This document shows, one piece after another, positions 13,919-53,028 of a stretch of DNA of 64,000 nt (positions are counted from its first letter, which is position 1; each line of letters starts with the position of its first letter). The notes below the pieces were generated by a model that had not been told where the DNA came from, did no database searches, and was given only the letters and a program-made list of their open reading frames with translations. This stretch comes from Dehalococcoidia bacterium (GTDB taxonomy: Bacteria > Chloroflexota > Dehalococcoidia > Lucifugimonadales > G963668185): contig CBDFLT010000009.1 of the NCBI GenBank assembly GCA_965249225.1, positions 159,593-223,592 on the forward strand, in the 5' to 3' direction. A program made the translations under genes and the position numbers.

Positions 13919-13927
13919 TTTATTCGC

Positions 13928-14842
13928 CTAACCGATCCGCGTTCCCAACGCCTTGCCCTCCAGGATGTCCAGGAGAGCCCGTGGCCTGCGCCCGTCGATA
14001 ATGTGAGCGGCGTCTACAGTGCCCAGAGCTTTAAGACACGCCTCCAGCTTCGGAATCATCCCACCCCCTACCACTTTTGAAGACACCAAGCCCATGGCAC
14101 GACGCTCGGTAAGCCGGGAGATCAGGCGACGAGACGGTAAGAGAACGCCCTCCACGTCCGTGAGGAATACGAGACGCTTCGCGTCCAGCGCCGCGGCGAT
14201 CTCGCCCGCCGCGGCGTCGGCGTTCACATTAAGAAGCGAACCCGAGAGTTCAGAACCATCATCACGGTGGACCGCCACCGGGGCGATAATAGGAATAGAG
14301 CCGGAATCGAGAACGGCCTGGATGGGGCCAGTGTCAACGCTTTTCACCCTCCCCACCAGTCCCAGTTCAGGGTCTTGGATCTCGCACTGTAACATGCGCC
14401 CATCCACCCCACTCAGCCCTACCGCCTTGCCACCGATGCTGAGTATGGACCCCACCAGTTGCTTGTTGACAAGCCCCGTCAACACAGCCACGACGATCTC
14501 CAGACTCGCCTTGTCGGTCACCCGAAGTCCCCGGACAAACCTGGGCCGGACGCCCTGCTTTATCATCCAGTCGGAGATCGTCTTGCCGCCACCGTGCACC
14601 ACCACGGCCCGAATACCTTTACGCTGAAGAACCACGAGGTCCTCCAGGGTGGTATCGTGGTCTCCAAACGTACTTCCGCCGATTTTGACAACTATCGTCC
14701 CATCGGGATCCGGTGCCTCCTTTGGAGTGCTGCGAATATGCGAGTCTGACAGGGGTTCTTGGTCCGGCGAGCCCTGCTCGGAGTTCTGTGGCCGCTCACC
14801 GGAGCGAGGTCCCTGCGATTCCATAAACACGAGGTCGGTCAA
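13928..14842 (-). CDS. argB: Acetylglutamate kinase (with ~50-aa low-complexity N-terminal extension)
   Basis: Amino-acid kinase motifs VVKIGGS, VVVHGGG and VNADAAAGEIA. Confidence 0.85.
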   Translation of the reverse strand: MTDLVFMESQGPRSGERPQNSEQGSPDQEPLSDSHIRSTPKEAPDPDGTIVVKIGGSTFGDHDTTLEDLVVLQRKGIRAVVVHGGGKTISDWMIKQGVRPRFVRGLRVTDKASLEIVVAVLTGLVNKQLVGSILSIGGKAVGLSGVDGRMLQCEIQDPELGLVGRVKSVDTGPIQAVLDSGSIPIIAPVAVHRDDGSELSGSLLNVNADAAAGEIAAALDAKRLVFLTDVEGVLLPSRRLISRLTERRAMGLVSSKVVGGGMIPKLEACLKALGTVDAAHIIDGRRPRALLDILEGKALGTRIG

Positions 14843-14846
14843 ACGA

Positions 14847-16064
14847 TCAAGTGCTGTAAGCGGAATTCAGGGTAACGTACTCCTCGGTGAGATCGCAGCC
14901 CCACGCCGTAGCGCTGGCGTCGCCGATATTGAGGTTGGCTCGCAGGCGCACTTCGGGCACGCCCATACTGCTCACCACCGCCTCATGGAAGAAGGGTATG
15001 GCGCTCCCCTCATGCACAATATGGATGTCGTTGACGAAGAGGTCGATCTTGGTCTCGACGACCTCAGCGCTGCTATTTCCAATGGCGGCTAACACCCGTC
15101 CCCAGTTAGGGTCGAGCCCATGCACCATGGCCTTGACCAGGACCGAGGCGGCCACCCCCCTGGCGGCGTCACGGGCGTCGGCCAACGTCTTCGCCCCGTC
15201 CACAACCACCTCGATCACCCTCTCGGCCCCCTCCGCGTCGCGGACGATCTCCTTAGCCAGCCCTATGCAGACGTAGGTCAGCGCCTCTTGGAACGAATCG
15301 GCCGAGGCCGAGCCGGCATTGATAACAGGGCCGCCGGCAGCGCCGTTCGCCAGCGCCAGCACAGTGTCGTTGGTGCTCTGGTCGCGGTCGACCGTAATCA
15401 TGTTGAAGGAAGAGTTCACCGACTCAGCAAGGGCGTCCTGGAAAAACCCAGCCTCAACTCGGGCGTCCGTGGCGATGAAACAGAGCATTGTGGCCATATT
15501 GGGGTGGATCATGGCGGCACCCTTGACGGCGCCTCCGATGATGATCCTATGTCCATCCGACTCTATGGATATGGCGATCTGCTTCGGCCGTGTATCGGTG
15601 GTCATGATGGACCGAGCAAACCGCTCGCCACCGTCCGTGCCGACTTTGATTTCGCCGATGTTCTGGCGAATGAGGCCCATGGGCAGCTCCATGCCTATGA
15701 TGCCGGTGCTGCACACCAGGGTCTCATCGGGCTTGATGCCGACGTGGGCGGCCGCCAACGCGGCCATCTCCTCGGCGTCCTTGATGCCCTGTTCCCCCAC
15801 GAGGCAGTTGGCGCAGCCGCTGTTGGCCACAACCGCCTGAGCGGATTGCCTCTTCGCACGCCGACGGCTCACCGTCACCGACCCCGACTCGACAGAGTTG
15901 GTGGTGAAGGTGGCCGCCAGCACAGCAGGCTGATCCGACAGAAGGATGCCCAAGTCCAACACGTCGTCCCCCTCCGACTTGAGTCCCGCGAATGTCCCTC
16001 CAGCGGAAAACCCCTTGGCGGAAGTAACGCCTCCACCCTGAATAAGCTCGATCATTGCCAGCAT
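14847..16064 (-). CDS. argJ: Bifunctional ornithine acetyltransferase / N-acetylglutamate synthase
   Basis: 405 aa with the autoproteolytic site context ATMLCFIATDA and a C-terminus ending YVTLNSAYST, typical of ArgJ. Confidence 0.9.
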   Translation of the reverse strand: MLAMIELIQGGGVTSAKGFSAGGTFAGLKSEGDDVLDLGILLSDQPAVLAATFTTNSVESGSVTVSRRRAKRQSAQAVVANSGCANCLVGEQGIKDAEEMAALAAAHVGIKPDETLVCSTGIIGMELPMGLIRQNIGEIKVGTDGGERFARSIMTTDTRPKQIAISIESDGHRIIIGGAVKGAAMIHPNMATMLCFIATDARVEAGFFQDALAESVNSSFNMITVDRDQSTNDTVLALANGAAGGPVINAGSASADSFQEALTYVCIGLAKEIVRDAEGAERVIEVVVDGAKTLADARDAARGVAASVLVKAMVHGLDPNWGRVLAAIGNSSAEVVETKIDLFVNDIHIVHEGSAIPFFHEAVVSSMGVPEVRLRANLNIGDASATAWGCDLTEEYVTLNSAYST

Positions 16065-16262
16065 CGGTCGTCCTTAACCATGTCCAACCGTGCGCGTTAA
16101 TCTGGATGCGATGCGGCGCACGCAACGACGGAAGTATAGCATACAGGCCGGGTGGCGAAAAGCGACGGGCCTCCGAGCCATCGGGGCGGACCCGCTTTTG
16201 GAAGGACATCGGCCACCGATTTTCCTGCTACAATCGGACCATAAATTAGCCGCTGGACGCTT

Positions 16263-16691
16263 GTGGGTACTTCATTAGGCCGATTCGAAGTGGTTGAGCA
16301 CACTGCCGACGTGGCCGTTGTGGCCACCGCAGATACCCTGGCGGAGGCCTTGTCCCTCGTCGCCACAGGCATGTTCAGCGTCATAGCCGATCTGGACACC
16401 GTCTCAAAGACGCACTCCGTCAAGGTGGCGGTCTCCTCCACAGACACCGAGGCGCTCGTGGTCGACTGGCTCAACGAGCTACTCTACCGGTACGAGGCCG
16501 AAGGGTTCCTGCCCAAGGAGCTCCACGTTTCGGTCGACGAGGGTAATGTAGCCCTCAACGCGGAGTGTCTGGGAGAGCCATTCGACCCCGGACGCCACCA
16601 GCTCGGCACCGCCGTCAAGGCGGCTACCTACCACCTACTGCAGGTGTCGCGCGACGGCCAGTGGGGTATTCGGGTCGTCCTTGACGTGTAG
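16263..16691 (+). CDS. Archease (RtcB activator)
   Basis: 142 aa with N-terminal FEVVEHTADVAV and C-terminal VKAATYH motifs. It lies immediately upstream of rtcB. Confidence 0.8.
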   Translation: MGTSLGRFEVVEHTADVAVVATADTLAEALSLVATGMFSVIADLDTVSKTHSVKVAVSSTDTEALVVDWLNELLYRYEAEGFLPKELHVSVDEGNVALNAECLGEPFDPGRHQLGTAVKAATYHLLQVSRDGQWGIRVVLDV

Positions 16692-16736
16692 CCTAGCCTC
16701 TGATCAGTCAGCGTACGCTGAGAGGAATCTGCCCAC

Positions 16737-18194
16737 ATGGCCCGCACCGACGCGCTGAAAAGGCTGGACGAAAACCGCTGGGAGCTCCCTCAGGACTCCA
16801 GGCCTGGGATGCGAGTCCCCGGACTGCTGTTCGCCGACGAGTCACTGCTCAAGCTGATAAAAGACGACCCCTGCATAGACCAGGTGGCCAATGTAGCCTG
16901 CCTGCCAGGGATTGTTGGATACTCCATGGCCATGCCCGACATCCATTGGGGCTATGGCTTCCCCATAGGGGGCGTCGCGGCCACCGAAGCCGATGGCGAA
17001 GGTGTAGTATCTCCCGGAGGCGTGGGCTTCGACATCAACTGCGGCATCCGCCTTCTGCGAACGGACCTCCTGGAGGCCGAGGTGCGCCCCCATCTCGAGG
17101 ACCTAGTGGCAACGCTGTTTCGGGAGATTCACACGGGGCTGGGACAGGGCGGACGGCTCCTGCTCAAGGCGAAGGAGGTCGACCAGGTGCTTGCACAAGG
17201 GGGCGCCTGGGCTGTGAAGCGTGGCTTCGGCCATCCAGAAGACCTGAAGACGACCGAGGAGGAGGGGTGCATGACGGGCGCCGAGCCCAGCGCGGTCGGC
17301 GACCGCCCCAAGAAACGTGGCGCCCCTCAGCTGGGGACGCTCGGCTCTGGAAACCACTTCCTCGAGGTCCAGGCGGTGGATGAAATCTTCCACGCCGACG
17401 CCGCCAGGGCGATGGGGATTCATGAGGTGGGCCAGGTAACCGTCATGGTCCACTGCGGCTCCCGTGGGCTGGGCCACCAGGTGTGCACGGACTCGCTACG
17501 GGCCATAGACGCCGCTAGCAAACGCTACGGCATCAATGTCCCTGACCGCCAGTTGGCATGCGTGCCCGTGTCATCTCCGGAGGGCGCTACCTACATGGCC
17601 GCCATGCAGGCCTCGGCCAACTTCGCCTGGGCCAACCGCCAGTGCATAGCTCATCTGACCCGTGAGTGCTTCGAGCAGGTGTTCAGCCGTTCCTGGGAGG
17701 ACATGGGCATCTGGCAGGTGTACGACGTCAGCCACAACATGGCCAAGATCGAGGACCACGTAGTAGAGGGCCGGCGAAAGCGGCTCTGCGTCCATCGAAA
17801 GGGTGCCACGCGGTCCCTTCCACCCGGCCACCCCGACATACCGGAACGCTACCGGGACATCGGCCAGCCGGTAATGGTGCCGGGGGACATGGGCCGCTAC
17901 TCCTTCCTGGCCGTGGGAGGACCGAAGGCGATGGAAGAGTCGTTCGGCTCCAGCGCCCACGGCGCCGGGCGAGCCGAGAGCAGGACCAAGGCGAAGAAGC
18001 TGCTGAAGGGACGGGACATCCGTCAGGAGCTGGCGGATCAGGGTATCGTAGCCATGGCCCGTGGGTGGGCCGGGTTGGCGGAGGAGGCGTCCATAGCCTA
18101 CAAGAACGTAGAGGACGTCATGCGGGTCTCCGAGAGCGCGGGCCTCTGCACCAAGGTGGCGCGGCTGCGGCCCCTAGGGGTGATCAAGGGCTGA
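16737..18194 (+). CDS. rtcB: RNA 3'-phosphate/2',3'-cyclic phosphate ligase RtcB
   Basis: 485 aa with MPDIHWGYGFPIGG, FDINCGIR, GSGNHFLE, HCGSRGLGHQ and SAHGAGR. Confidence 0.9.
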   Translation: MARTDALKRLDENRWELPQDSRPGMRVPGLLFADESLLKLIKDDPCIDQVANVACLPGIVGYSMAMPDIHWGYGFPIGGVAATEADGEGVVSPGGVGFDINCGIRLLRTDLLEAEVRPHLEDLVATLFREIHTGLGQGGRLLLKAKEVDQVLAQGGAWAVKRGFGHPEDLKTTEEEGCMTGAEPSAVGDRPKKRGAPQLGTLGSGNHFLEVQAVDEIFHADAARAMGIHEVGQVTVMVHCGSRGLGHQVCTDSLRAIDAASKRYGINVPDRQLACVPVSSPEGATYMAAMQASANFAWANRQCIAHLTRECFEQVFSRSWEDMGIWQVYDVSHNMAKIEDHVVEGRRKRLCVHRKGATRSLPPGHPDIPERYRDIGQPVMVPGDMGRYSFLAVGGPKAMEESFGSSAHGAGRAESRTKAKKLLKGRDIRQELADQGIVAMARGWAGLAEEASIAYKNVEDVMRVSESAGLCTKVARLRPLGVIKG

Positions 18195-19857: not shown

Positions 19858-21609
19858 CTATTCGTCGACAGTTACAATGTAAACGCCCTTGGCCCTGTCG
19901 AGGAGGGAGTTCTCGTAGCTATAGTGAGCGTAGATAAGAACCCGCTGCCTCCCATCGGTCAGCCGCTGGCGCGCGAAGGGAACCGGGTTCCATCCCACCA
20001 TCCTCAACAAGCGCGTCTTGCTCTCGACGGTGGATTGAAGGCCCTGGAAGTCGATGGTGAGGTAGTTGACGGTCATGGCGAAATCGTCTGCCACTTCCTT
20101 GCCGGTTAGTAGAATGGACATCGATCCGCGCTCACCAGAGGACGGAGGTTGACCAATAACCATCCAGGTCAACGCATGGTCCCAGGGGACGACCTTGGCG
20201 AAGCCCTCCGGATATTGAGCGAATTCGCCTCCGCTAACGTCGGCGACCCACAGACCCCCGCCCTGCTCCTCGAACCCGTACAGGACCGAGAAGAGGTATC
20301 CGTCGTCGCCGGTGAGATACGGAGAGTGGCTATAGAGATGCTCTGGACGATTTGTCTCCGTATCGGTCGGAAGCGGGTACTGGACAAGCTGGTAGGAGTC
20401 CGGATCATCGACATCCACCGTGTACACCGACTGCCAGCGCGGATCGGCCGACCCACCATCCGATGGGTCCGGCCAGCCCTCGGTGCTCAAAAGTAGGTAG
20501 GTAGAGTCCTCGCGCCGGATAGGCATGGCCGTCAGGATGGCGCCCGGCGCTACGTAGACCACTTCTGGATTGCGCATAGAGGGGTCGGTCCTTATCACGA
20601 GGTTACGCCGCTCTCTATCCGGCTCTTGGGGCCGCCATATAAGATGATATACTTCCTCACCCGCCTTGCGAGTCGCTCGCACTTGATCGCAGTCCCGCAG
20701 ACCTTCTACTCCCAGCGACTGCAGGCGGGCCTCTCGCCAGTACCGGTTGGTACCAAAGAACGTGGAATCACGGCCATGAGGCGCGGCAGACGCCTGGCCT
20801 ACCATCTCCATGAGAGACCCGCCTCCATTATTTGCATCCGGACCAGGAACGTTGGGAAGGAAGCCTATTGAAGTGAGGAGGTCCTGGTACGCGCGGGACG
20901 ACACGGCCTCACGGTAGATCTCGCACATCTTGGGGGCCAGATGCGCCGGGGGCTCTCTCTGCAATTCGAAGGGAAGGGCCAGTATCTCCTCCTCGTACTC
21001 GCGCGCAATTTGGGAGGTGCCTGACACCAGGGTCACGGCGTCCACGAGGAAGTGGGTTGGGCCGCTGGTCCCTGGTTTGGCGCTTCGCCACTCATCGGGT
21101 ATCCGGTCGGGTATCACCAGAAACGAGCCGTCGGGGAAGACCTCGCTGATAGTACCGGTCGTCTCTCGCCCAGGCCGGTACTCAAAGGTGATGCGGTGGA
21201 ATAGGGTACGGGCGCCCACGGGGTCCTGGAGTTTGCGCAACACGTCCCGGTCCAACGGCACTCCCAGGCGCCGGTGCAAACGCTCGACCTTTTGGCTGGG
21301 GTGCTCGCCGACAAGCTCAGATTCGATGGCCAGCAGGTCGAGATAACGGACCCCAGTCTCGTGTGAAAGCCGGACCTTTGCCCTGCCCTCCCACTCCACA
21401 ATCATCTCAGGAAGCCCAGCAACAGGAACCTGAACTCCGGACTCGGTCTCTGCCACGAACCCGGGTTTGACCAGTTGGGCCACCGAGGGTACGTCCACGT
21501 CCTCAGTGGAATCCCCTCCGCAAGCCAAGGCTAGAGCCAAGAAGGCTCCAAGCATGCTCAAGCACAAGGCCTTGGGAAGACTCGCGCCGCGGGAGTTCGA
21601 TCCACCCAT
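19858..21609 (-). CDS. Hypothetical secreted lipoprotein (no recognisable domain)
   Basis: ATG at 21609 is preceded by GAGGAGG. It has a signal peptide with a lipobox (LALALACGG). It lies ~120 nt downstream of the archaellin array on the same strand. Confidence 0.5.
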   Translation of the reverse strand: MGGSNSRGASLPKALCLSMLGAFLALALACGGDSTEDVDVPSVAQLVKPGFVAETESGVQVPVAGLPEMIVEWEGRAKVRLSHETGVRYLDLLAIESELVGEHPSQKVERLHRRLGVPLDRDVLRKLQDPVGARTLFHRITFEYRPGRETTGTISEVFPDGSFLVIPDRIPDEWRSAKPGTSGPTHFLVDAVTLVSGTSQIAREYEEEILALPFELQREPPAHLAPKMCEIYREAVSSRAYQDLLTSIGFLPNVPGPDANNGGGSLMEMVGQASAAPHGRDSTFFGTNRYWREARLQSLGVEGLRDCDQVRATRKAGEEVYHLIWRPQEPDRERRNLVIRTDPSMRNPEVVYVAPGAILTAMPIRREDSTYLLLSTEGWPDPSDGGSADPRWQSVYTVDVDDPDSYQLVQYPLPTDTETNRPEHLYSHSPYLTGDDGYLFSVLYGFEEQGGGLWVADVSGGEFAQYPEGFAKVVPWDHALTWMVIGQPPSSGERGSMSILLTGKEVADDFAMTVNYLTIDFQGLQSTVESKTRLLRMVGWNPVPFARQRLTDGRQRVLIYAHYSYENSLLDRAKGVYIVTVDE

Positions 21610-21731
21610 CTCGCGCCTCCTCACCCGTGCCTCTGCCGAGCCTCCTCCGCGAGACCAGTCATGTCGCCCGGCGCAGAGCCAATTGGAGAACGCCACAGCC
21701 CAACGCATGTGTTACCCGGTAACGGACTCCG

Positions 21732-22325
21732 CTAATTCAAGTCCATGACCGTGGTAAGCTCGACCGGGGTTTTCCGTTGAAGGTTCAATACTGCGCCGAC
21801 GGCCGGCTTGAGCTGGATGGTGAACTCTTTGTCGGTCGTCAGCTTTGTGGTTATCCCCGAGATATCGGCGTCGATCTCAACGGTCTCTCCAGGGTTGACC
21901 AGGCTGCCACTGCCGGACAGCCAGGTGGGCGTCCAGGTGGACAGGTTTACGCTCTGGTCGGCGTCTATATATGTGACGACCGCCGCGTTGACGCCCGACG
22001 TGGACAGGTTTACAGCCGCCCCGCTTTTCGAGGCGTTGGTCACCTGGAACTTGATGTTGGTGACGTTGGACGGAGTGCTGGTGGATATGGCGATGACGGA
22101 GCCCCGCAATACCAGCGTAGACGACACCTCCTCGAGAGAACCCAGGATCGTTTGCTTGCTCTTCTCCGAGCTAAGCAGCCCCGTGCTCAAAATCGTGAAG
22201 GCGAACACCGACGCCACCACCACGAACGCGATGAGCACAATAGCCGTCTCTAGGCCAGTGATGCCCCGTTGGCCGTGCACGACCCGGAGGAATGACCTGC
22301 CCACTGACCTGAGAGTTGGTTTCAT
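21732..22325 (-). CDS. Archaellin-type (archaeal flagellin / class III signal peptide) protein, paralog 1
   Basis: ATG at 22325 is preceded by GAGGAGAG. N-terminus ...GQRGITGLETAIVLIAFVVVASVFAFTILSTGLLSSEKSKQTILGSLEE. Conserved C-terminus KEFTIQLKP.VGA. Confidence 0.8.
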   Translation of the reverse strand: MKPTLRSVGRSFLRVVHGQRGITGLETAIVLIAFVVVASVFAFTILSTGLLSSEKSKQTILGSLEEVSSTLVLRGSVIAISTSTPSNVTNIKFQVTNASKSGAAVNLSTSGVNAAVVTYIDADQSVNLSTWTPTWLSGSGSLVNPGETVEIDADISGITTKLTTDKEFTIQLKPAVGAVLNLQRKTPVELTTVMDLN

Positions 22326-22460
22326 CTGGGCACTCTCCTCTGATGATTGACCCTGGACCCTCTTTATCGCTCTAATGCCGAGGGCCGACCACCCGAGAAC
22401 ATCTCTGAGATGACCGGCCCCGATGAGCCGAAAGGCCACGGCTCGCAGGAGGGTATAATT

Positions 22461-23021
22461 CTAATTGAAGTCTATTATCGTAGTCAGCTCAGCCGGGGTC
22501 GTCCTGCTCACTATCAGCGACGCGCCCACGTTGGGCTTGAGCTGGATGGTGAACTCCTTGTTTGTGCTGAGCTTGGTGGTTAACCCCGAGATATCGACGT
22601 TGATCTCCACCGTCTCTCCGGGGTTGACCAGGGAGGAGCTGCCCGTAAGCCAGGTAGCTGTCCAGCTGGTCAAGTTCGAGGACTGGTCGGCGTCTACATA
22701 GGTCACGATGGCCGAGTTAACGCCCGACGTTGCCAGGTTCACAGCCTCACCGCTCTTTGAGGCGTTGGTCACCTGGAATCTGACATCTGTAACGGTGAAC
22801 GGTGTGCTGGTGGATATCCCCAACACTGAGCCGCGAATGACCAGCGTCGCGGCCGCCTCTTCCAGTCCACCGATTATGGTCTCCTTGCTCTTCTCAGAGC
22901 TAAGCAGCCCCGTGCTCAACACCGCGAAGGCGAACACCGACGCCACCACCACGAACGCTATGAGGACGATGGCCGTCTCAAGCCCCGTGATCCCCCTCTG
23001 GTCGTTCTCTACCTTTGCCAT
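22461..23021 (-). CDS. Archaellin-type protein, paralog 2
   Basis: Probable start MAKVENDQRGITGLETAIVLIAFVVVASVFAFAVLSTGLLSSEKSKETIIGGLEE. Conserved C-terminus NKEFTIQLKPNVGASL. Confidence 0.8.
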   Translation of the reverse strand: MAKVENDQRGITGLETAIVLIAFVVVASVFAFAVLSTGLLSSEKSKETIIGGLEEAAATLVIRGSVLGISTSTPFTVTDVRFQVTNASKSGEAVNLATSGVNSAIVTYVDADQSSNLTSWTATWLTGSSSLVNPGETVEINVDISGLTTKLSTNKEFTIQLKPNVGASLIVSRTTPAELTTIIDFN

Positions 23022-23191
23022 CCGCCCCGTTGCCCATGTAAATAATCGTTTCACTTCGGACTTACCCCCATTCTGCGTTTTTGTCTTTGTTTCCGCTCTC
23101 CAAACGTGCCCTTCAGCCACCACCTACTCGGTCTTACCGGGCCCGACTTTTGCGCCTAAAGCCTGATGAAAGACCGCACCTTCGATTACCG

Positions 23192-23794
23192 CTAGTTCAG
23201 GTCGATTACCGCGGTCAGCTCCGCCGGGGTCGTCCTGGTTATCAGCAGCGTCGCGCCCACGTTGGGCTTGAGCTGAATGGTGAACTCCTTGTTTGCATTT
23301 AGAGGTGTGGTCGAGGCCAGGGTGGACAGATTGACCAAGACCTCCACCGACTCACCGGGGTTCACCAGATCGCCACTCCCCGTCAGCCACGTAGGAGTCC
23401 ACTGGGTTATGTTGAGGACCTGGTCGGAGTCGATGTAGGTGACGATGGCCGAGTTGAGGCCTGAATTGGACAGGTTCACGGCCTCTCCGCTCTTCGACGC
23501 GTTGGTCACCTGGAACTTGACGTCCTGTATCTGGGTGGCCGTGCTCGTGTCTCGTGTGGCGAGAATAGAACCTCGGATCACCAGCGTCGCGGCCGTCTCC
23601 TCCAGTCCGCCGATTATGGTCTCCTTGCTCTTCTCAGAGCTAAGCAGCCCCGTGCTCAGCACCGCGAAGGCGAACACCGACGCCACCACCACGAACGCTA
23701 TGAGGACGATAGCCGTCTCAAGCCCCGTGATCCCCCGTTGATCTTGTCTCAGATTGAGGCTTGGTCTCGTTACGCCCTTTACTAACCTTTTCAT
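23192..23794 (-). CDS. Archaellin-type protein, paralog 3
   Basis: ATG at 23794 is preceded by GAGGAAGG (an alternative ATG is at 23809). N-terminus ...QDQRGITGLETAIVLIAFVVVASVFAFAVLSTGLL, near identical to paralog 2 at the DNA level. Confidence 0.8.
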   Translation of the reverse strand: MKRLVKGVTRPSLNLRQDQRGITGLETAIVLIAFVVVASVFAFAVLSTGLLSSEKSKETIIGGLEETAATLVIRGSILATRDTSTATQIQDVKFQVTNASKSGEAVNLSNSGLNSAIVTYIDSDQVLNITQWTPTWLTGSGDLVNPGESVEVLVNLSTLASTTPLNANKEFTIQLKPNVGATLLITRTTPAELTAVIDLN

Positions 23795-23821
23795 TTGATC
23801 CTTCCTCATAAGGGGTTTGCC

Positions 23822-24415
23822 CTATTGCAGGTCCATCACCTGAGTCAACTCGGCCGGAGTCTTCCGGCTCACCACCACCACGGCCCCTACCGTGGGCTTC
23901 AGCTGTACTGTGAACTCTTTGCCAGCTCCCAACTTGGTAGCCAGCCCTGAAACGTCCACATCGATCTCGACCGTCTCCCCAGGGTTTACCAGAGGACCGC
24001 TTCCCGCTAGCCAAGTCGCCGCCCACGAGCTCGAGTTGACAGACTGGTCATCGTCAATATAGGTGAGAATGGCGGCGTCGAGGCCGGAGGCCGACAGATT
24101 TACGCTCTCACCGCTTCGGGAGGCGTTGGCCACCTGAAACTGGATGTTGGTGACGCTGAACGGAGTGCTGGTGGATGTGGCGACGACCGATCCCTTCAGC
24201 ACCAGGGTGGCGGATGTCTCCTCGAGAGCGCCGATTATGGTCTGTTTGCTTTTCTCGGAGCTAACGAGCCCAGTGCTCAAAATTGCAAAGGCGAACACCG
24301 ACGCCACCACCACGAACGCGATAAGGACGATAGCGGTCTCGAGACCTGTGATTCCCCGCTGGTCATCCCAGGTAGGCCTAGCGATCCCGCCCGGCCCACT
24401 CACTACGTGGCCCAA
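23822..24415 (-). CDS. Archaellin-type protein, paralog 4
   Basis: TTG start at 24415 is preceded by GAGGGGG. N-terminus ...DDQRGITGLETAIVLIAFVVVASVFAFAILSTGLVSSEKSKQTIIGALEE. Confidence 0.75.
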   Translation of the reverse strand: MGHVVSGPGGIARPTWDDQRGITGLETAIVLIAFVVVASVFAFAILSTGLVSSEKSKQTIIGALEETSATLVLKGSVVATSTSTPFSVTNIQFQVANASRSGESVNLSASGLDAAILTYIDDDQSVNSSSWAATWLAGSGPLVNPGETVEIDVDVSGLATKLGAGKEFTVQLKPTVGAVVVVSRKTPAELTQVMDLQ

Positions 24416-24576
24416 ATTACCCCCTCTTTCACGCGTCTGCTGGAAACCGGCGTTTCCGATCTCGACTGAAGGCTAGGTACTAACCTGGATTCCATATTAG
24501 CGGCTTCCACACACCGGGTACAGAGTGTTTGCCCACATGTTTTGTTGGGGGGTAGCGGAGTGAATCAGGGACTTCC

Positions 24577-24595
24577 CCCCACAGGCCCTGTGGGG
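24577..24595. promoter_or_regulatory. Perfect 9-bp inverted repeat with 1-nt spacer (CCCCACAGG-C-CCTGTGGGG) in the divergent archaellin / response-regulator intergenic region
   Basis: Read directly from the sequence. It could be an operator or a leader hairpin; the function is unknown. Confidence 0.3.
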
Positions 24596-24705
24596 TTCCA
24601 CTGTCGGGCCATGGGTGCTAGCACCTATTCGGTACGTGCCGGCATTGAAGAGCCGCGCACCCGATTGGGGCCGGTGGCACCCGGTGTACTGGGGCAAAGC
24701 CTGGC

Positions 24706-24735
24706 TTGCGGCGACGGCGACTACGCTCGTATAAT
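24706..24735 (+). promoter_or_regulatory. Candidate sigma-70 promoter for the response-regulator gene
   Basis: TTGCGG, an 18-nt spacer, then TATAAT. A GAGGAAG RBS lies 8 nt before ATG 24774. Confidence 0.35.
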
Positions 24736-24773
24736 GGCCTCTCGTAATAGACCCGTTTGAGGAAGCTCCCGCA

Positions 24774-25376
24774 ATGCCACCCGCGGATGCTCAGGGAAAA
24801 GTCAAAGTTCTCCTAGTCGAGGATGAGGACCTTTACAGGGACCTCCTTGGCGCGGCCCTGTCTCAGCAAGATCGCTTCGAAGTGATCGGCGCGTTCTCCG
24901 ACGGGAAAGAGGCCCTGGAGGCTGCCGCAACTCTGAAGCCAGACGTCGCGATCCTTGATATCGAGTTGGGAAGCGGTATGAACGGGATTCAAGTGGGGTT
25001 ACTGCTACGCAGGGAGCTGCCCGACATGGGAATCATCCTGCTCTCCAACCACGGAGACCCGCAATTCGTGTCCTCACTTCCCAAGGAAGCGATCACCGGC
25101 TGGTCCTACCTTCTGAAGAAAACCGTCTCTGACATCTCCGCGCTTGGGCGGGCGATAGAAGGCGCCGTATCCGGCTTCGTGGTGCTCGACCCTCAGATCG
25201 TGGAGGCGGCCCAGCCCAAGTCGGGAGGTCTGCTATCTAAGCTCACGCCCCGCCAGTTCGAGGTAGGGCGTGACGATGGATCGGTACAGCCCAGAGTGAA
25301 GGCGGTGCTTACGTTTCTCCGTGAAAGCCAGGCCCTGGGGGGCGGATTCACCACCCCGGAGACGGGCACCGAATAG
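24774..25376 (+). CDS. NarL/FixJ-type response regulator with incomplete LuxR-type HTH
   Basis: REC domain (VLLVEDEDL, DVAILDIELG, the K in SYLLKK). The output domain starts LTPRQFEV but lacks the expected L.L.A.G.SNKEIA helices. Confidence 0.7.
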   Translation: MPPADAQGKVKVLLVEDEDLYRDLLGAALSQQDRFEVIGAFSDGKEALEAAATLKPDVAILDIELGSGMNGIQVGLLLRRELPDMGIILLSNHGDPQFVSSLPKEAITGWSYLLKKTVSDISALGRAIEGAVSGFVVLDPQIVEAAQPKSGGLLSKLTPRQFEVGRDDGSVQPRVKAVLTFLRESQALGGGFTTPETGTE

Positions 25377-25478
25377 TACCATAGACACGTCACCTCCACC
25401 GGGGAATTTCTATGAAGAGGATCACGTGTGTCGACTCGGGGTCTTTGGCATCGGCGTCCACAAAAAGAGGAAGGCGCG

Positions 25479-25841
25479 ATGAACCGTAAGATCATGCTTG
25501 TGGACGATGAGCCTGATTTCGTTGAGTTGGCGAAGGACCTCCTGCAACACGAACCCGACCTCACGGTCGTGGGTCACGCGGCAAGTGGCAAGGAGGCGCT
25601 CGCACTCCTCCCAACGTTGAAGCCAGAGGTCGTAATCCTGGATGTCAACATGCCGGAGATGGGTGGGTTCGAGGTAGCGGGGCGGTTGTTGAACGTCAGT
25701 CCTTCGACGAAGGTGATATTAGTAAGCACCATCGACGATCCCCAATACGACTCCATGGCGCAGTCGGTCGGGGCAGCGGCGTTCCTGACAAAGAAGAGGT
25801 TCTCGGCTGAGGCGGTACTAGCTGCCCTTAACCAGACCTAG
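25479..25841 (+). CDS. Single-domain CheY-like response regulator
   Basis: MNRKIMLVDDEPDF, VVILDVNMPEMGG and FLTKK. ATG at 25479 is preceded by AAGAGGAAGG. Confidence 0.8.
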   Translation: MNRKIMLVDDEPDFVELAKDLLQHEPDLTVVGHAASGKEALALLPTLKPEVVILDVNMPEMGGFEVAGRLLNVSPSTKVILVSTIDDPQYDSMAQSVGAAAFLTKKRFSAEAVLAALNQT

Positions 25842-25892
25842 CCCAGACCACCCGCCGCGCCCGGTCTGGCCGCCCCCGTCGCAACACCGCTA

Positions 25893-27056
25893 TCACACCG
25901 CCGTGCGATTGTTGTCCCCGGCAACCGCCGGGACTGTCGCATTAGGCTCTAGGTTTCTAAGGGGCAGACGGACGCTGAGCCGTGTCCCTGCCGGGGGACC
26001 TAATGTGCTCTGGATGTCCCAGGTGCCTCCCGTCACGCCAACACGGTCCTCGATAGCGTTCAGGCCGAATCCCAGCTCCATCTGGGATGTGTCGAAGCCG
26101 CGGCCGTCGTCCTTGATCGACATCTCGAGGATCCGGCCCTCGTCAACTCCAAGGCTGACCTCCACCGAACTGGCCTTGGCGTGTCGGCGCACGTTGTTCA
26201 AACCCTCCTCAAGAATCCTGTATGCCACGAGGCGCACTTCCTCGGGTATCCGGTTCTCTACAGGGTCATCCAGCTTCACCAACTCCGGGCTGGATTGCAA
26301 TGAGACACTCAGGTCTTCTTTCATCTGAGCAAGGAGGCTACGCACGGCGGGCAGTAAGCCGATGCGGATTATGGAGGGATGTAAGAGGTGGCTGGCCTGT
26401 CTGACCTCCCGCTCCCGAATTTGCTCCACCTCATCCCTGATCCGCACAAGGAGTTTTTTCGCTTCCGCGGGGTCCGAGTCCAACATCGCCTCACATTCAC
26501 CCAGGCGGTGCCAGGCGAGGAGTAGGCTCGTCTGGACTCTACCGTGGAGCATCTCGGCGATCTCCTTGCGAACCGAATCCTCCGCGGTGGTGATCCGCTC
26601 TCTCGATCGCCTCAAGTCATCTTCGGCACGCACGCGGGTGGTCACCTCGAGGCTCAGTTGACGGTTGGCCTCCCGTAGCTCTTCGACCCTTCGCTCGACC
26701 CGGTTCTCCAGCTCCAGGTTAGCGAACTCCAACTCGTCGCGCTGCTTTGAGATCGTTCGCCACCCTCTCCACACGATAAATACCAGGCCGCCATACGTGA
26801 TGATGAAGCCACCGCCCAACGTTCCGTACGTCACCGACCTGAGGTTGCGCAGGTCACGGCTGATTTCTGAGATAGACTGCCGATTAGCCACTTGTCCAGC
26901 CCCAGTAGGAGCGCCAAACGTCTGCTGTTCCAGGGTCTCGAGATCACTGTTGAGTCCCACGGTAATGACCACTGAAATGACCACACCGAGCACCACCATG
27001 ATCACGCCGCCGAGGACGCAAAATCGGACGAGTAGATTTTCGTTTCGATCGTTCAC
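25893..27056 (-). CDS. Membrane sensor histidine kinase (HisKA_3 + HATPase_c)
   Basis: Two N-terminal TM helices, a coiled coil, an H-box EMLHGRVQTSLLL, LHPSIIRIGLLPAVRSL, an N-box LEEGLNNVRRHA, G1 DDGRGF and G2 GFGLNAIEDRV. Confidence 0.8.
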   Translation of the reverse strand: MNDRNENLLVRFCVLGGVIMVVLGVVISVVITVGLNSDLETLEQQTFGAPTGAGQVANRQSISEISRDLRNLRSVTYGTLGGGFIITYGGLVFIVWRGWRTISKQRDELEFANLELENRVERRVEELREANRQLSLEVTTRVRAEDDLRRSRERITTAEDSVRKEIAEMLHGRVQTSLLLAWHRLGECEAMLDSDPAEAKKLLVRIRDEVEQIREREVRQASHLLHPSIIRIGLLPAVRSLLAQMKEDLSVSLQSSPELVKLDDPVENRIPEEVRLVAYRILEEGLNNVRRHAKASSVEVSLGVDEGRILEMSIKDDGRGFDTSQMELGFGLNAIEDRVGVTGGTWDIQSTLGPPAGTRLSVRLPLRNLEPNATVPAVAGDNNRTAV

Positions 27057-27445: not shown

Positions 27446-28021
27446 TCACGGGTTGGCGTTCAGCCACGCCTCGATGTTGCCAAAGTACTTCTGAAGCTCC
27501 TCCTCCAATCGGGGGCCGGGGTCTATATAGGTAAACCCTCCGTTCGTCCCCTTACCGGTGTTGGGGGCAAAGCCGTATTTGCCGACCAGGGACGCCATCT
27601 GCCGCTTCGCCTCCTGGAGGTCCAGGCAAGGTTCCGACTGCCCTGGTGCCACGGGGTCTCTGCCGCAATGAGTGATTATCAGGCCGTCGATGTTGGTCCG
27701 CACGATGGGTCGCTCCCCATCGTCGATACGGGTCTTATAATCGATTGGGGCCAGCGTGCCATCCTGGAGCTGCTGGAACAGCTGCTCAAGCCTGCCTTTG
27801 ACCGCCTTGAGATCGTCAAAGATGGCCTGGACGGTCGCAGGTTCGAGATCGGGGCGTTCCGATGGTGGTATGGGAATGGACGTGGCAACCACCACTCCCT
27901 TGTCGGGCTCATCGTGGGTCAGCGACGACGGCAAGGGAGCTTCGAGGGAGGAAGAGCAGCCGCCCCACGCTACCGCTAATACGATCAGTGCCAATATGGG
28001 GAGTAAGCGCATGTGTGACAC
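27446..28021 (-). CDS. Hypothetical lipoprotein
   Basis: Signal peptide with a lipobox (LAVAWGGCSS). No recognisable domain. Confidence 0.45.
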   Translation of the reverse strand: MSHMRLLPILALIVLAVAWGGCSSSLEAPLPSSLTHDEPDKGVVVATSIPIPPSERPDLEPATVQAIFDDLKAVKGRLEQLFQQLQDGTLAPIDYKTRIDDGERPIVRTNIDGLIITHCGRDPVAPGQSEPCLDLQEAKRQMASLVGKYGFAPNTGKGTNGGFTYIDPGPRLEEELQKYFGNIEAWLNANP

Positions 28022-29214: not shown

Positions 29215-30438
29215 ATGGCCGGGCAAACTAATGGTCACTCCGACGGTAGGCCTCCCGAGCTGATCGAGAATCATCGGCAAGGACGGATACTGGAGCGGTC
29301 ATTCTACACCGATCCGGCCGTGTTCGAGCTTGAGGCGGAGAAGATCTTCCACAAGTACTGGCTCTACGCCGGGCACGTCAGCCAGATACCGAATCCGGGC
29401 GACTACTTCCTCCGAAATGTCCTGGACGAGTCGTTGATAATCATCCGGGGCGACGACGGCCAGGTGCACGCCCTGTACAACGTCTGCCGTCATCGGGGTT
29501 CGCAGATCTGCTGGGAAGAAACCGGCCATATGGGCAACCTGGTATGTCCCTACCATGCCTGGGTCTACAAGCGGGACGGGTCGCTCAAGCACGCCCGGCT
29601 GTTTCCCGAGGACTTCGACAAGTCGCGGTTCGGGCTCCACCGTGCGCCTGTGGAGGTCCTGGAGGGGTTCATCTTCTTCAGCCTGTCGAACGAACCGGTC
29701 GACTTCGAACCCGTTTCGAGAGACCTCCGACCGCATCTGGAGTGGCATGACTTCGGTAGTGCCAAGGTGTGCCACACTGAGTACCTCGATCTCCATGCCA
29801 ACTGGAAGATCCTCAACGAGAACGCGCGCGAATGCTACCACTGCGGCCCGGCCCACCCCGACTTGTGCAGGGCCGTACCGTTCGCCGCGGCAACCGGCGC
29901 TCCGAAATACGTGCCGGAAGAAGAGCGACTTAACAAGCTCGCGGAGGCCCGATGGAGCGAGATTGGCCTACCCGCCCGAATGGTCGACCAGACGGTCGAG
30001 ACCTGGTACCAGGCTTTCCGCCTCCCCCTCTTCGAGAGTCACGTCAGCTTCACCCTGGATGGCCGAGCGGTGGCGCCCCTGATGGGATACTTCGAGCGAC
30101 CGGAGGACGCAGGGCAGCTGACCATGGGCATCCTTCCAACGTTTTGGTTTGAAGCCAGTTCAGACTACGCCGTGGTGATGTGCTTTACACCGGCGGAGCC
30201 GGCCCTGACGAAGCTTAAGATGGACTGGCTGGTCCGTGGAGATGCGGTCGAGGGCCGTGACTACCAGGTGGAGCAATTGACGGAGATGTGGCGAGTAATT
30301 AGCGGGCAGGACTGGCAGCTATGCGAAGGAGCCCAGGTAGGGATCAGCTCTCGCCACTACGCGCCCGGGCCCCTGGCAGGTGTCGAGTCGTGGCTTGATA
30401 CGCTGGTCCAGTGGTATCTAGGTCAGTTGAAGAGCTAG
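29215..30438 (+). CDS. Rieske [2Fe-2S] aromatic-ring-hydroxylating oxygenase alpha subunit-like protein
   Basis: Rieske motif CRHRGSQIC...CPYHAW, with a C-terminal catalytic SRPBCC-like domain containing ECYHCGPAH. Confidence 0.8.
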   Translation: MAGQTNGHSDGRPPELIENHRQGRILERSFYTDPAVFELEAEKIFHKYWLYAGHVSQIPNPGDYFLRNVLDESLIIIRGDDGQVHALYNVCRHRGSQICWEETGHMGNLVCPYHAWVYKRDGSLKHARLFPEDFDKSRFGLHRAPVEVLEGFIFFSLSNEPVDFEPVSRDLRPHLEWHDFGSAKVCHTEYLDLHANWKILNENARECYHCGPAHPDLCRAVPFAAATGAPKYVPEEERLNKLAEARWSEIGLPARMVDQTVETWYQAFRLPLFESHVSFTLDGRAVAPLMGYFERPEDAGQLTMGILPTFWFEASSDYAVVMCFTPAEPALTKLKMDWLVRGDAVEGRDYQVEQLTEMWRVISGQDWQLCEGAQVGISSRHYAPGPLAGVESWLDTLVQWYLGQLKS

Positions 30439-31663
30439 GGAACCTCTGAATAACCCTTCATATGCTGGATTGAATTGATTGCAGGGGTAGTTCGAAGATG
30501 TTCAATTCTTTGCGATGGCCCATCAGGCTGTTGCGGCCCTAAATCGGGTCTGTTTGGGCTTCGAAAGCGGGCTCTGCCGGGGGCGTGTCGCCGCTATCAA
30601 CCTGATTTGGGCGCACTTCTCTCTCGTCACACCGCCAAGTGGCGCTCGGCTGTCATCAAGTTGGCAAACCCCAGCAGCAACGCCAGCCGTTGCGTGTTCT
30701 TGGCCAGTCCACGATACCGCACCTTGGCGTAGCCAAAGTGACGCTTCACATACAGGAACGGATGCTCCACCTTCGCCCTGACCGACGCCTTGCGCTTCTC
30801 CGCCAACGCCTCCTCGCTTTCAGGTGCTAGCTGCCGACGCCGACCGGGCTTCATCGCCACGCGCCACTCCACATCCAACTCTCGGTTCTCCTCCCGCTTA
30901 TCGACTCCCTGATACCCCGCATCGCCCCACACCCGCGTCTCTCCACCGTGTAGTAACCGGTGAGTTTCGGTCACGTCATGCACGTTCGCTGATGTCATAG
31001 CTACACTATGCACCACCCCTGTCTCTTCGTCCGCCCCGATGTGCACCTTCATACCGAAGCTCCACTTGTTGCCCTTCTTGGTCTGGTGCATCTCTGGGTC
31101 ACGCTCCCGGGCACGGTTCTTAGTCGACGACGGCGCCTCGATGATGCTCGCGTCCACTATAGTCCCCTCCCGAAGACGAAGCCCCTGAGTCTCCAGGTGG
31201 ACGTTGATGGTCTTGAACAGACCTTCGCCAAGATCGTGCTCCTCCAGCAAGTGGCGGAAGTTCAGGATCGTCGTCTCGTCAGGCAGAGGGCCCGACAGCC
31301 TCAGGCCCACGAATCGCCTCACCGACTCGACCTCGTATAGCATGTCTTCCATCCCAGGGTCGCTCAGGTTGTAGAACAGCTGCACGCAGTGTATGCGAAG
31401 CATCGCCGACAGCTCATACGGATGCCGGCCTCGGCCAGCCTCGGGATAGTATGGTCGAATGCGACTCTCCAACTGTCCCCACGGTATCAGACCGTCCATG
31501 CGCTCCAGAAACAGCTCCCGCCGAGTCTTGCGCTTCTTACACTCGTACTCCAGGTCCGCAAATGTCGGCTGGTTCATCTACTCTTGCTCCCGTCCTTAGT
31601 CAGTTCGTCTCCACTTGTCATGGTACTATGCCACCATAATCCACGGACTTGTTCAGAGTATCC
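30439..31663 (-). mobile_element. IS5-family insertion sequence, complete copy (1225 bp)
   Basis: Terminal inverted repeats GGAACCTCTGAA / GGATACTCTGAA (10 of the first 12 nt match, resembling the IS5 GGAAGGTGCGAA ends). Flanked by a 4-bp direct repeat CTAG at 30435-30438 and 31664-31667. Encodes a single transposase. Confidence 0.9.
30627..31577 (-). CDS. IS5-family DDE transposase
   Basis: 316 aa, strongly similar along its length to E. coli IS5 transposase as I recall it (TFADLEY, RPYYP..GRGRHPY, MLRIHC.Q..YNLSD, IIEAPSSTKN..RERDPEMHQTKKGN.W.FGMK.HIG, VEHPF...K..FG..K.RY.GL.KN). Confidence 0.9.
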   Translation of the reverse strand: MNQPTFADLEYECKKRKTRRELFLERMDGLIPWGQLESRIRPYYPEAGRGRHPYELSAMLRIHCVQLFYNLSDPGMEDMLYEVESVRRFVGLRLSGPLPDETTILNFRHLLEEHDLGEGLFKTINVHLETQGLRLREGTIVDASIIEAPSSTKNRARERDPEMHQTKKGNKWSFGMKVHIGADEETGVVHSVAMTSANVHDVTETHRLLHGGETRVWGDAGYQGVDKREENRELDVEWRVAMKPGRRRQLAPESEEALAEKRKASVRAKVEHPFLYVKRHFGYAKVRYRGLAKNTQRLALLLGFANLMTAERHLAV

Positions 31664-41464: not shown

Positions 41465-42512
41465 TTAGTTCCTGAACGCGGGGATCACATGCTTCCCAAA
41501 TAGCTCTATGGACCGCATGGTCTTCTCGTGGGGCATCTGATCGCTCTGCATCATAAGGATGATCTGGTCGGCACCCGACTCCTGATGGCGCTTGACTCCT
41601 TCGATACAGCTTTCAGGGTCTCCAGCCACGATTATGCCCTGCTCGGAGAGGGTCCGGGCATCCAGTTCCCGAAAGACATCCAGTTCGAACTTTTTCGCTC
41701 CCTCTTCAAGGCCCGAGTCCTTGCCAAGCATGGTCCTGAAGGCCATTTCAAGATGGTCCGGAACACCACCCCAGGCGTTCAACAGATTTTTATATAAATC
41801 TACCTGGTCTCTCGAGTAAGGGCGGCCAGGGCCCATTGCGGCCTTAATGGCCTGGGCACCCAGCTCCTGCGCCTCTTCGTTATTGTCTCCACAGTGCCCT
41901 ACGGTGTAGTTTGCCCACTGATCGTTGATGAAAGCCCCCACCGGCTTGGCCCTCTTGACATCGGTCTTGTACTCTCGAATTTGCTCAGCCAGGGTAATCG
42001 GTGCGTAGGAGGAGTACGTCAGGACACCTACACCTTTCTCCGCGGCTATCTTATACATCACAGAATCGCGAAGTGGACACCCAGATAGGAGGATGAGGCT
42101 TCTGGAAAGGCTTGGGTTGAATGCGTCGAAGCGGGACATCTCAAAACCGGCCCTTCCATGAGAACTCATCCCTGAGCCATATTTGAGGTATCATTTCGAT
42201 GGCCTCCTCCCACATGGCCCGGGAGTCCCTGGGGTCTACACCGAATCCCTCGTGCTCATAGGCGGTACTGCGGCCGGTGCCGAACCCCAGCCGGATTCGC
42301 TTGGTTATCCAGCTCAGGGCACCGTAGACAACCTCTGGACAGGAGGACGCGGAGAAGGTGTTCAGGAAATGGTGCTCCGTAAACCACAGATATTCGAAGC
42401 CCACCTCGTCGGCGAGGACACACTGCTCCAGCGTTTCCTCCACCAGGCTGTTCTCGTCCACCACTCCATCGGAGAAAGGACGCTCCATCTCAAAGAGCAG
42501 TCCAAATTTCAT
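41465..42512 (-). pseudogene. Disrupted LLM-class flavin oxidoreductase gene
   Basis: The N-terminal (42141-42512) and C-terminal (41465-42169) pieces are in different frames. There is an in-frame TGA at 42141-42143. The canonical QPKPFQKPHPPIW motif (42081-42119) is readable only in the N-terminal frame after that stop. About 30 aa are missing after RIRLGFG relative to the intact paralog at 38929-39954. Confidence 0.7.
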
Positions 42513-42750
42513 GAGGGGTCTCCCGCCCGTACACGCCTAACGTTACTGAGCCGAAAATTACTATAGCGACTACCTTGCGGAAAAAGGGAAGGCGTATCCA
42601 GAATGAAGTAGAGCCTAGCACCGCCTCTTAGGGGTGTCAAACACTCGAAGACGGGCCCGACGCCGTCATTACCTGTGTCCATATAACTCTGTGCCATAAT
42701 GGAAGCATCGCCGAATTAGGATTCTGAAAATTTGGCGACGGGAGGCGACC

Positions 42751-44004
42751 GTGCCGAAACGAGTACATCACGTAGTAAGACGGCCGGGGAGGAGACCGGA
42801 AGACCCGGATGTGGAGATACCCGTCGCAGAAGACCTGGGCACAATCCCAGGCATCCCGCTAAGGGAACGGGACCTCTCCTTCTACAGCAGGGTATATCCT
42901 CTGGAAGACGTCGACTCAAATACCACCGCTGACATAGCATGGGGTCTTACCGTATTAAACGAGGAGATGGCTAAGCAGCGGAATAAGTATGACGAAATAT
43001 ACGATCGTGACGACAAAGAAGCGGACGTCTCTGGTGAATTGGAGCCTATGGCTCCGTCTGATCACACAAGAGACGTCACAGAGGACATTCGCCAAAAGGC
43101 CAGGGAGATAGGTTTCGGTGAGGTAGGATTCACCAAATACGATCGAAGGTACACATATACCACCAAAAAAACTTGGGCCAAGTTCGACCATGCTATCTGT
43201 TTGGCCCTGGAGCAGGACTACGTACAGACTGAAGCCACCCCCAGCATGGAGTCCGAGGAGGCCCACTTCGGCACCTATGAGATTGGAGCAGCCCTTTCTC
43301 TAAAGCTGGCTTCTTACATTCGCTCGATAGGCTACCACGCTCAGATCCACAGTCCTACAGATAGCAGCGGAGCCTATATACCCATGTTCGTGAGCGCCGG
43401 TCTGGGTCAACTGGGGGCCAACGGTCAGCTTCTGTCGCCTCACTTTGGGTCCCGGTCCCGGCTGACTATAGTCACTACCGACGCTCCGGTAAAGCACGAT
43501 AAACCGATAGACTACGGCATAAACAAATTCTGCCAGCTCTGCCAGGTATGCGTGAACCGCTGCCCCGGTCGAGCCTTGACTCGGGACAAGATTTGGTGGC
43601 GCGGCGCGGAGAAGAACAAGGTCATCTACAAGCAATGTTTTCCAATCATGTCCAGCTACGAGGGCTGTGGTGTCTGTATCAAGGTTTGCCCCATCCAGCG
43701 CTACGGAATGAAGCCGGTGATGGAGCACTATATTGCTACTGATCAAGTGCTGGGCAAGGGCACCCATAACCTGGAGGGTTACTCCATGCGGGGCAAGGTG
43801 TATTTCGGCCCCGGCGAAATGCCCCACTTCGACCGTCAGCTCTTCATGTTCCCTCACGGACTAAAGGAAGATGTGGTCTTCCACGAGTTCAAGAAGAAGC
43901 TGGACGAGGATGGTATGCCATCCAATGAAGAATTAACGGATTTCGCCACCAAGGTCGGAGAAATCCTAGAGGAAAAAACTTCCACTACCCGGTCGGGTAC
44001 CTAA
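42751..44004 (+). CDS. Reductive dehalogenase / QueG-superfamily Fe-S protein (cytoplasmic, no Tat signal)
   Basis: AGLGQLGANGQLLSP.FGSR.RL..V.TDAP...DKPIDYGINKFCQLCQVCVNRCP followed ~35 aa later by CGVCIKVCP. This is the hallmark two-cluster arrangement of RdhA/QueG. The start is uncertain (GTG 42751). Confidence 0.55.
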   Translation: MPKRVHHVVRRPGRRPEDPDVEIPVAEDLGTIPGIPLRERDLSFYSRVYPLEDVDSNTTADIAWGLTVLNEEMAKQRNKYDEIYDRDDKEADVSGELEPMAPSDHTRDVTEDIRQKAREIGFGEVGFTKYDRRYTYTTKKTWAKFDHAICLALEQDYVQTEATPSMESEEAHFGTYEIGAALSLKLASYIRSIGYHAQIHSPTDSSGAYIPMFVSAGLGQLGANGQLLSPHFGSRSRLTIVTTDAPVKHDKPIDYGINKFCQLCQVCVNRCPGRALTRDKIWWRGAEKNKVIYKQCFPIMSSYEGCGVCIKVCPIQRYGMKPVMEHYIATDQVLGKGTHNLEGYSMRGKVYFGPGEMPHFDRQLFMFPHGLKEDVVFHEFKKKLDEDGMPSNEELTDFATKVGEILEEKTSTTRSGT

Positions 44005-44031
44005 AGCCAGTAAGGTCTATCTCTTAAACAA

Positions 44032-44244: not shown

Positions 44245-44251
44245 CCTGCCC

Positions 44252-44295: not shown

Positions 44296-44297
44296 TG

Positions 44298-52948: not shown

Positions 52949-53028
52949 CGGTCTCTCTACCTCCATTCGAGCTGGCCGCTTAGATTGGGACGCCCTCAAC
53001 AATATCACGGTTACAGGCCAATGAAAGG

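Follow-up and report, generated by a model that had tools for sequence, protein, structure and literature searches.

How does a bacterial locus come to hold a row of filament subunit genes with nothing beside them to assemble or rotate the filament, and which of the neighboring genes belong with them? The question is raised by a stretch of 64,000 nucleotides from a Dehalococcoidia bacterium (contig CBDFLT010000009.1 of assembly GCA_965249225.1), referred to here as the window, which carries four tandem archaellin genes, arlB1 to arlB4. These genes are flanked on one side by the gene of a predicted lipoprotein and on the other by a divergently oriented two-component module. Every gene listed in a preliminary description of this DNA was found in its place. 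Comparison with related loci shows that the conserved partner of the array in relatives is the two-component module and not the lipoprotein.

The four archaellin genes lie on the minus strand, and all four open reading frames (ORFs) are intact. The first, arlB1 (23822 to 24415, 197 amino acids), has a TTG start codon with AGAGGGGG just before it. It is followed by arlB2 (23192 to 23794, 200 amino acids), whose ORF is open to 23809, by arlB3 (22461 to 23054, 197 amino acids), which has a GTG start, and by arlB4 (21732 to 22325, 197 amino acids). The products are identical to P0067, P0056, P0058 and P0064, respectively, and matched PF01917 with E values of 3.6e-18, 6.5e-21, 2.3e-19 and 5e-19. 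The match was full length in all four (profile positions 1-161 of 162), with 66.9-75.8 bits against a Pfam cut-off of 29.5. TIGR02537 was matched with 29.4-31.7 bits (cut-off, 20) by arlB1 and arlB2, the two tested. In the alignment, the N-terminal sequence Q-x-G-I-T-G-L-E-T-A-I-V-L-I-A-F-V-V-V-A was invariant in the four proteins, for which a class III (type IV pilin-like) signal peptide and a hydrophobic N-terminal helix are predicted. The top match of arlB2 among solved structures was the flagellin chain 9i5h (183 amino acids, E 7.8e-31). Since residue 1 of this mature chain aligns with I22 of arlB2, cleavage is predicted between G21 and I22. The paralogues share 64-73% identity, with pairwise synonymous divergence (dS) of 0.65-1.4 and nonsynonymous-to-synonymous ratios (dN/dS) of 0.18-0.31, indicating that they are old duplicates retained under purifying selection. 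Judged from their sequences, the four genes encode genuine archaellins (ArlB) of a Chloroflexota clade, which would presumably be assembled into a rotating filament by ArlI and ArlJ. An N-A-S sequon (N98-A99-S100 in arlB2 numbering) was invariant in 10 of 10 archaellins of this clade, in which other N-x-S/T sites are common; 9i5h has no Asn at the aligned position.

When about 58 ORFs spread over the window were scanned with Pfam, neither a T2SSE ATPase nor a T2SSF/ArlJ platform was detected, and a KaiC-like ArlH and a Peptidase_A24 were missing as well. The 64 kb likewise gave no Pfam match to a TadA/PilB ATPase, a TadB/C or PilC platform or a prepilin peptidase, the components expected of a Tad or type IV pilus system. 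The window was also searched by tblastn with the ArlF/G, ArlH, ArlI, ArlJ and ArlCDE-like proteins that 24 Chloroflexota machinery loci encode, the query families being verified as ArlI (T2SSE), ArlH (KaiC), ArlF/G and ArlJ (NF004703, E 4e-127), and the best match reached only E 0.019. Together, these negative results indicate that there are no motor genes or recognizable pseudogenes within 20 kb on one side of the array and 37 kb on the other. A complete archaellum (arl) cluster, with arlB contiguous with arlF, G, H, I and J and with or without arlCDE, was not present in the window. The preliminary description had stated that the array is uncoupled from assembly and motor genes and that the 64 kb encode no secretion ATPase, no ArlJ/TadC-like protein and no A24 peptidase; both searches agree with it. 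According to Pfam, the window encodes arginine biosynthesis, RtcB/archease, RpoD, SAR202-style oxidoreductases, transporters and IS5 transposases. The polytopic ORF of 411 amino acids at 59583-60818 was considered as an ArlJ-like platform and rejected, given its weak ALG3/GT-C match, its glycolipid gene context and the lack of a tblastn match with the 24 ArlJ proteins.

Because an RpoD sigma factor of the bacterial type is encoded in the window (Pfam), the host is a bacterium. The best 80 archaellin loci in GTDB species genomes all came from metagenome-assembled genomes (MAGs) of Chloroflexota, Dehalococcoidia or SAR202. The top archaellin identity among them was 58%, so that the genome of the window is not part of this collection. 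The window is from a Chloroflexota bacterium of the Dehalococcoidia/SAR202 type. The ORFs of 83 archaellin loci were clustered, and those 47 loci that showed machinery or had at least 8 kb on both sides were counted. ArlH, ArlI and ArlJ were present in 24 of these well-flanked Chloroflexota loci and absent from 23. Five MAGs (CBDFKS, CAZQRP, JAJCYW, JAJRZP and JABIHL) contain a complete locus together with an orphan one; in CBDFKS, L019 is the complete locus, L020 consists of a lone archaellin, and L030 is a four-gene array beside a NarL-type two-component pair. In the closest relatives of the window (L007, L172, L008, L089, L009 and L090/91), no machinery was found within the available flanks. 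Their archaellins are 78% (L007), 65-70% (L172) and about 60% (L008) identical to those of the window, and arrays of four to six intact copies are kept in several relatives.

Scattered archaellin genes have been described before. Functional archaella with a solved filament structure are known from Litorilinea aerophila (Sivabalasarma et al. 2025, PMC12488501), and in Chloroflexota the PibD/PilD signal peptidase is encoded outside the archaellum locus (PMC12488501). Archaella are also present in cultured SAR202 (Lim et al. 2023, PMC10444878), where six flaB genes of Ca. Lucifugimonas marina adjoin flaGFHIJ, six more are scattered and FlaK is encoded elsewhere (PMC10444878). In an archaeon, Haloarcula marismortui, the main component of the filament is an archaellin whose gene is on a plasmid, at a distance from the fla genes (PMC6528647). 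The physical uncoupling of archaellins from the motor is thus an ordinary and already reported layout in Chloroflexota.

The two-component module lies upstream of the array. It consists of a NarL/FixJ-type response regulator gene (24774 to 25376, plus strand), in whose product Pfam detected Response_reg only; a single-domain response regulator gene (25479 to 25841, plus strand); and the gene of a membrane-anchored sensor histidine kinase of the NarX/UhpB/LiaS (HisKA_3-like) type (25893 to 27056, minus strand). The single-domain regulator, described as CheY-like in the preliminary description, matched Response_reg with E 3.8e-23, and L009 and L090/L091 have an orthologue at the corresponding place. 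In the kinase, HATPase_c scored 31.9 bits, above its cut-off, and the motif E-I-A-E-M-L-H-G-R-V-Q was present. Residues 124-367 gave MctS-, UhpB-, LiaS- and NarX-like matches in NCBIfam, all below the equivalog cut-offs. HisKA_3 itself, named in the preliminary description, was not reported by Pfam in the window kinase at E <= 0.01; the L090 orthologue gave a weak HisKA_3 match.

Read in the orientation of the archaellins, the genes are arranged as a forward kinase gene, two backward regulator genes (the single-domain regulator and then the NarL-type one) and the four forward arlB genes. The same order and strands were found in L009, from the Dehalococcoidia MAG CATMOE, and in L090/L091, which come from TARA and another ocean metagenome; the L009 MAG is closely related to the marine L090/91 population. 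L008 has the layout of the window minus the small regulator. The regulators are 42-60% identical to that of the window (60% in L008), and the kinases are 46-49% (L008) and 35% (L009 and L090) identical. Five complete loci with machinery (L019, L035, L045, L067 and L074) likewise have a regulator orthologue scoring at least 90 bits, which lies on the opposite strand and a few hundred base pairs upstream of the first arlB gene; in the truncated loci L048 and L055, the orthologue has the same divergent position. With the window, the arrangement is present in 12 of the 72 loci with enough upstream sequence, i.e., in 11 related loci. The regulators share a distinctive tail behind the LuxR helix-turn-helix (HTH), h-P-R-V-x-A-V-L-x-Y-L. 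A negative control was provided by 80 loci from JGI metagenomes with unrelated HisKA_3-type kinases of 27-38% identity, 517 kb in all, none of which contained an archaellin.

The NarL-type regulator of the window is damaged. Compared with the L008 orthologue, which carries GerE, it has a single in-frame gap of 37 codons (111 bp) that spans the whole LuxR/GerE HTH, with the deletion point near 25260. The deletion leaves the receiver domain and the conserved C-terminal tail, and the receiver domain, the small response regulator and the kinase are intact in the window. Because the HTH has been deleted, the NarL and MctR profiles of NCBIfam matched positions 1-136 of the window regulator versus 1-200 in L008. 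The NarL/FixJ architecture, a receiver followed by a C-terminal GerE/LuxR HTH, was therefore not found in the window regulator: of the NarL-like regulator proposed earlier, the receiver is there and the HTH is not. A second lesion was detected in the kinase of L090/L091, where a CGA-to-TGA nonsense codon is present at the same site (locus coordinate 8362) in two independent marine assemblies; L009 keeps CGA. The module is thus conserved yet decays repeatedly.

The 358 bp that lie between arlB1 and the divergent regulator gene (24416 to 24773) are the presumed promoter region of the array. In the 11 related loci, the gap between the regulator orthologue and the first arlB is roughly 340-700 bp. 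No Rfam family or structured RNA was matched in the region 24416-24773. The 10-11-mers AGTACACCGGG and CATGTGGGCA are common to this region and to the distant complete loci L045, L067 and L074, and they are explained neither by the alignment nor by Rfam.

On the other side of the array lies the gene of a predicted lipoprotein of 583 amino acids (19858 to 21609, minus strand; identical to P0001), which had been put forward as a new accessory factor. Such a protein might serve, for example, as an anchor or chaperone in a monoderm envelope. The gene follows arlB4 on that strand after a gap of 122 bp, in which no terminator-like site was found (fold z-score -0.43); the product is predicted to be a surface lipoprotein with a beta-propeller. 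Its N terminus has a predicted signal peptide and the sequence M-L-G-A-F-L-A-L-A-L-A-C-G-G-D (LALAC), in which Cys is the majority residue at its position in the family alignment. As described earlier, no domain was recognizable, there being no Pfam and no NCBIfam match. The AlphaFold2 model (pLDDT 87, pTM 0.87) has an N-terminal alpha/beta region and a C-terminal beta-propeller, for which Foldseek against the PDB returned generic propellers only (E ~1e-4). Homologues form 55 clusters with 37-50% identity, none of them named, and all those with a named source are from Chloroflexota MAGs. However, no archaellin or machinery gene was found within 10 kb on either side in any of four homologue contexts from other Chloroflexota, and none of 84 archaellin loci contained a homologue. 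Two homologues share a different conserved neighborhood, S6-SSB-SurA-homoserine dehydrogenase-lipoprotein-glyoxalase-ArsC, and the gene in the window has its own strong ribosome-binding site. The contexts and the 84 loci indicate that the adjacency is coincidental and that the lipoprotein is an unrelated neighbor, not part of the system; a role as accessory factor is extremely improbable and close to refuted by synteny. Of the order lipoprotein, archaellins and two-component module, whose conservation the preliminary description had proposed to check, the module part recurs in L009, L090/91 and L008 and the lipoprotein part in none of the 84 loci. The lipoprotein gene lies about 27 kb away from a trio of collagen-repeat ORFs, CorC and GlmU-like genes (46451-46987, 47368-48192, 48295-49557 and 49656-51008); on the contig that carries the closest lipoprotein homologue (L001), the trio (13735-17036) is only 2-5 kb away, which suggests a rearrangement or insertion between them.

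The locus is probably a satellite source of filament subunits, with the motor and the peptidase encoded elsewhere, the paralogues used as alternative or mixed subunits, and the module tuning transcription in relatives. Under this reading, the array would have parted physically from the motor genes (arlCDE/F/G/H/I/J) and from the gene of the signal peptidase. Its transcription may be driven by the 358-bp region upstream of arlB1. The pre-archaellins would then be cut by a PibD/PilD-type class III peptidase and polymerized by an ArlI/ArlJ machine, both encoded elsewhere in the genome, and the four old and diverged paralogues could provide alternative or mixed subunits of the filament. In relatives, the divergent two-component module most likely tunes archaellin transcription. 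Here, the NarL-type regulator lacks its DNA-binding domain and control is probably broken or rewired. A satellite locus under two-component control had been suggested before; comparative data and the literature favor the satellite reading over the others, and the linkage to the module is real, but the local NarL-type regulator has no HTH, and two-component control therefore cannot run through that regulator here.

Several observations weigh against a satellite locus tuned by the module. The genes arlH, arlI and arlJ and a class III peptidase were sought within the 64 kb alone, and in a distance tree the archaellin clade of the window has no machinery at any locus, so that the coexistence of satellite and motor is shown only for other Chloroflexota clades. 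The module is absent from the arrays of the close relatives L007, L089 and L172, and the intergenic regions between regulator and arlB yielded no operator motif in common, an 11-sequence alignment having no shared block. The module may also be decaying rather than regulating, as the HTH has been lost here and the orthologous marine kinase has a nonsense codon.

Some of the same observations would fit a relic, i.e., an array left behind after loss of the motor or the end of swimming, with archaellins and regulators decaying and no filament formed. The HTH deletion, the marine nonsense codon and the absence of machinery from the clade all point this way, as do the identical insertion sequence copies nearby and in L007 and the report that cultured SAR202 cells showed no archaella (PMC10444878). 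Against this, the four ORFs are intact, with invariant signal peptide and core residues, several relatives retain intact arrays of four to six copies, and the dN/dS of 0.18-0.31 points to constraint, although this ratio mostly reflects older history. We consider a relic unlikely. Less likely still is that a Tad or type IV pilus machine polymerizes the archaellin-like proteins, or that they form a nonrotating adhesive fiber independent of the motor. The 64 kb have no motor genes, the clade was never motor-linked among the loci examined, and Tad pili are encoded by about a third of Chloroflexota genomes (PMC12488501). However, the window is without Tad and type IV pilus genes too, and its archaellins equal the subunit of a solved Chloroflexota swimming filament in length and clearly resemble it (E 7.8e-31). 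Orthologues of the adjacent regulator, moreover, adjoin complete archaellum loci. We know of no case in which archaellins are assembled by a Tad system.

To our knowledge, nothing is known about the control of archaella in Chloroflexota, archaella in bacteria being a recent discovery. Chloroflexota archaellins and their scattered copies have already been published (PMC12488501, PMC10444878), and the one element that may be new is the two-component module with its conserved link to archaellins. The two main papers on bacterial archaella do not mention a two-component system or response regulator of this kind, and none of the papers open to the search combined archaellin, Chloroflexota and response regulator. 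With the lipoprotein removed as a false lead, the candidate regulator is a NarL-type response regulator, often with a kinase, that stands divergently upstream of archaellins in satellite as well as complete loci of distant Chloroflexota. It is possible, though rather doubtful, that in one SAR202-type clade the arrays lie apart from the motor as a rule and have acquired a bacterial HisKA_3/NarL two-component system of their own, supplemented by a further single-domain receiver. In the extreme variant, genomes would be entirely without arlHIJ and another type IV filament machine would be used. If the recruitment is true, the system would be the first regulator to be put forward for a bacterial archaellum, a bacterial signaling module grafted onto an archaeal organelle, and the cells could switch or mix filament subunits according to conditions. 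The decay of the module, by HTH deletion here and by a nonsense codon in the marine kinase, bears on whether abundant bacteria of the ocean and subsurface swim.

The window has other features as well. A second small lipoprotein-like ORF (27446-28021, minus strand, 191 amino acids, with A-W-G-G-C) adjoins the kinase gene; it had no Pfam or NCBIfam match and no homologue in the related loci L001-L091. Two IS5-family copies (30436-31542 and 62894-64000) are 100% identical, in direct orientation and 32 kb apart. The IS5-family element is also 100% identical over 1014 bp in L007 (1-1014), a 180-kb ENA contig that has a lone archaellin 78% identical to arlB2 and a composition similar to that of the window (GC 0.595, tetranucleotide r 0.96); this contig may be from the same or a sibling genome. 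Two stretches, 41465-44735 and 52277-53706, have lower GC and low GC at third codon positions and contain unannotated ORFs and a DUF4145 protein. Two tRNA genes (44873-44944 and 46001-46072) are near the low-GC stretches, which may be integrated foreign DNA. The regions 53833-56938 and 59583-60818 encode an inositol-1-phosphate synthase, a GT4 glycosyltransferase, a CDP-alcohol phosphatidyltransferase and a GT-C-like protein with 10 transmembrane segments, a set that resembles a pathway for phosphatidylinositol glycolipids. A gene pair for archease and the RNA ligase RtcB (16263-18194, plus strand) adjoins the arginine biosynthesis genes and RpoD.

Among known signaling systems, the module resembles NarX-NarL, UhpB-UhpA, LiaS-LiaR and MctS-MctR, in that the kinase core and the receivers match these below threshold and the regulators of the relatives carry a GerE/LuxR HTH. 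It differs from them in reaching no equivalog cut-off, in the extra conserved C-terminal tail h-P-R-V-x-A-V-L-x-Y-L of the regulators, in the lack of an HTH in the window copy and in its linkage to archaellin genes, of which the papers open to the search gave no instance.

The archaellins themselves are of the same family and clade as those of Litorilinea aerophila-type Chloroflexota loci (PMC12488501), with a signal peptide of class III and the mature N terminus I-T-x-L-E-T-A-I; the best structure match, 9i5h, also connects them to these loci, in whose genomes the signal peptidase gene lies elsewhere than in the archaellum locus. In the Chloroflexota archaellum loci, however, arlB is followed by arlCDE/GF/HIJ in one locus, whereas the window has no machinery within 20 kb and 37 kb of the array. 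Like the window, Ca. Lucifugimonas marina (PMC10444878) belongs to the Dehalococcoidia class and has archaellins away from the motor genes (flaGFHIJ); its peptidase is encoded elsewhere. Its genome includes a complete cluster, whereas the 64-kb window includes the satellite only, and a four-gene array with an adjacent two-component module, as seen here, is not part of the description in that paper. In Haloarcula marismortui (PMC6528647), flaA2 is on plasmid pNG100, whereas flaB is beside the fla genes. That case differs in its archaeal host, in salt regulation through unknown factors and not a bacterial two-component system, and in having single genes instead of a four-gene array. It resembles the satellite array proposed here in that an archaellin encoded at a distance from the motor can be the major filament subunit and that the paralogues respond differently to conditions.

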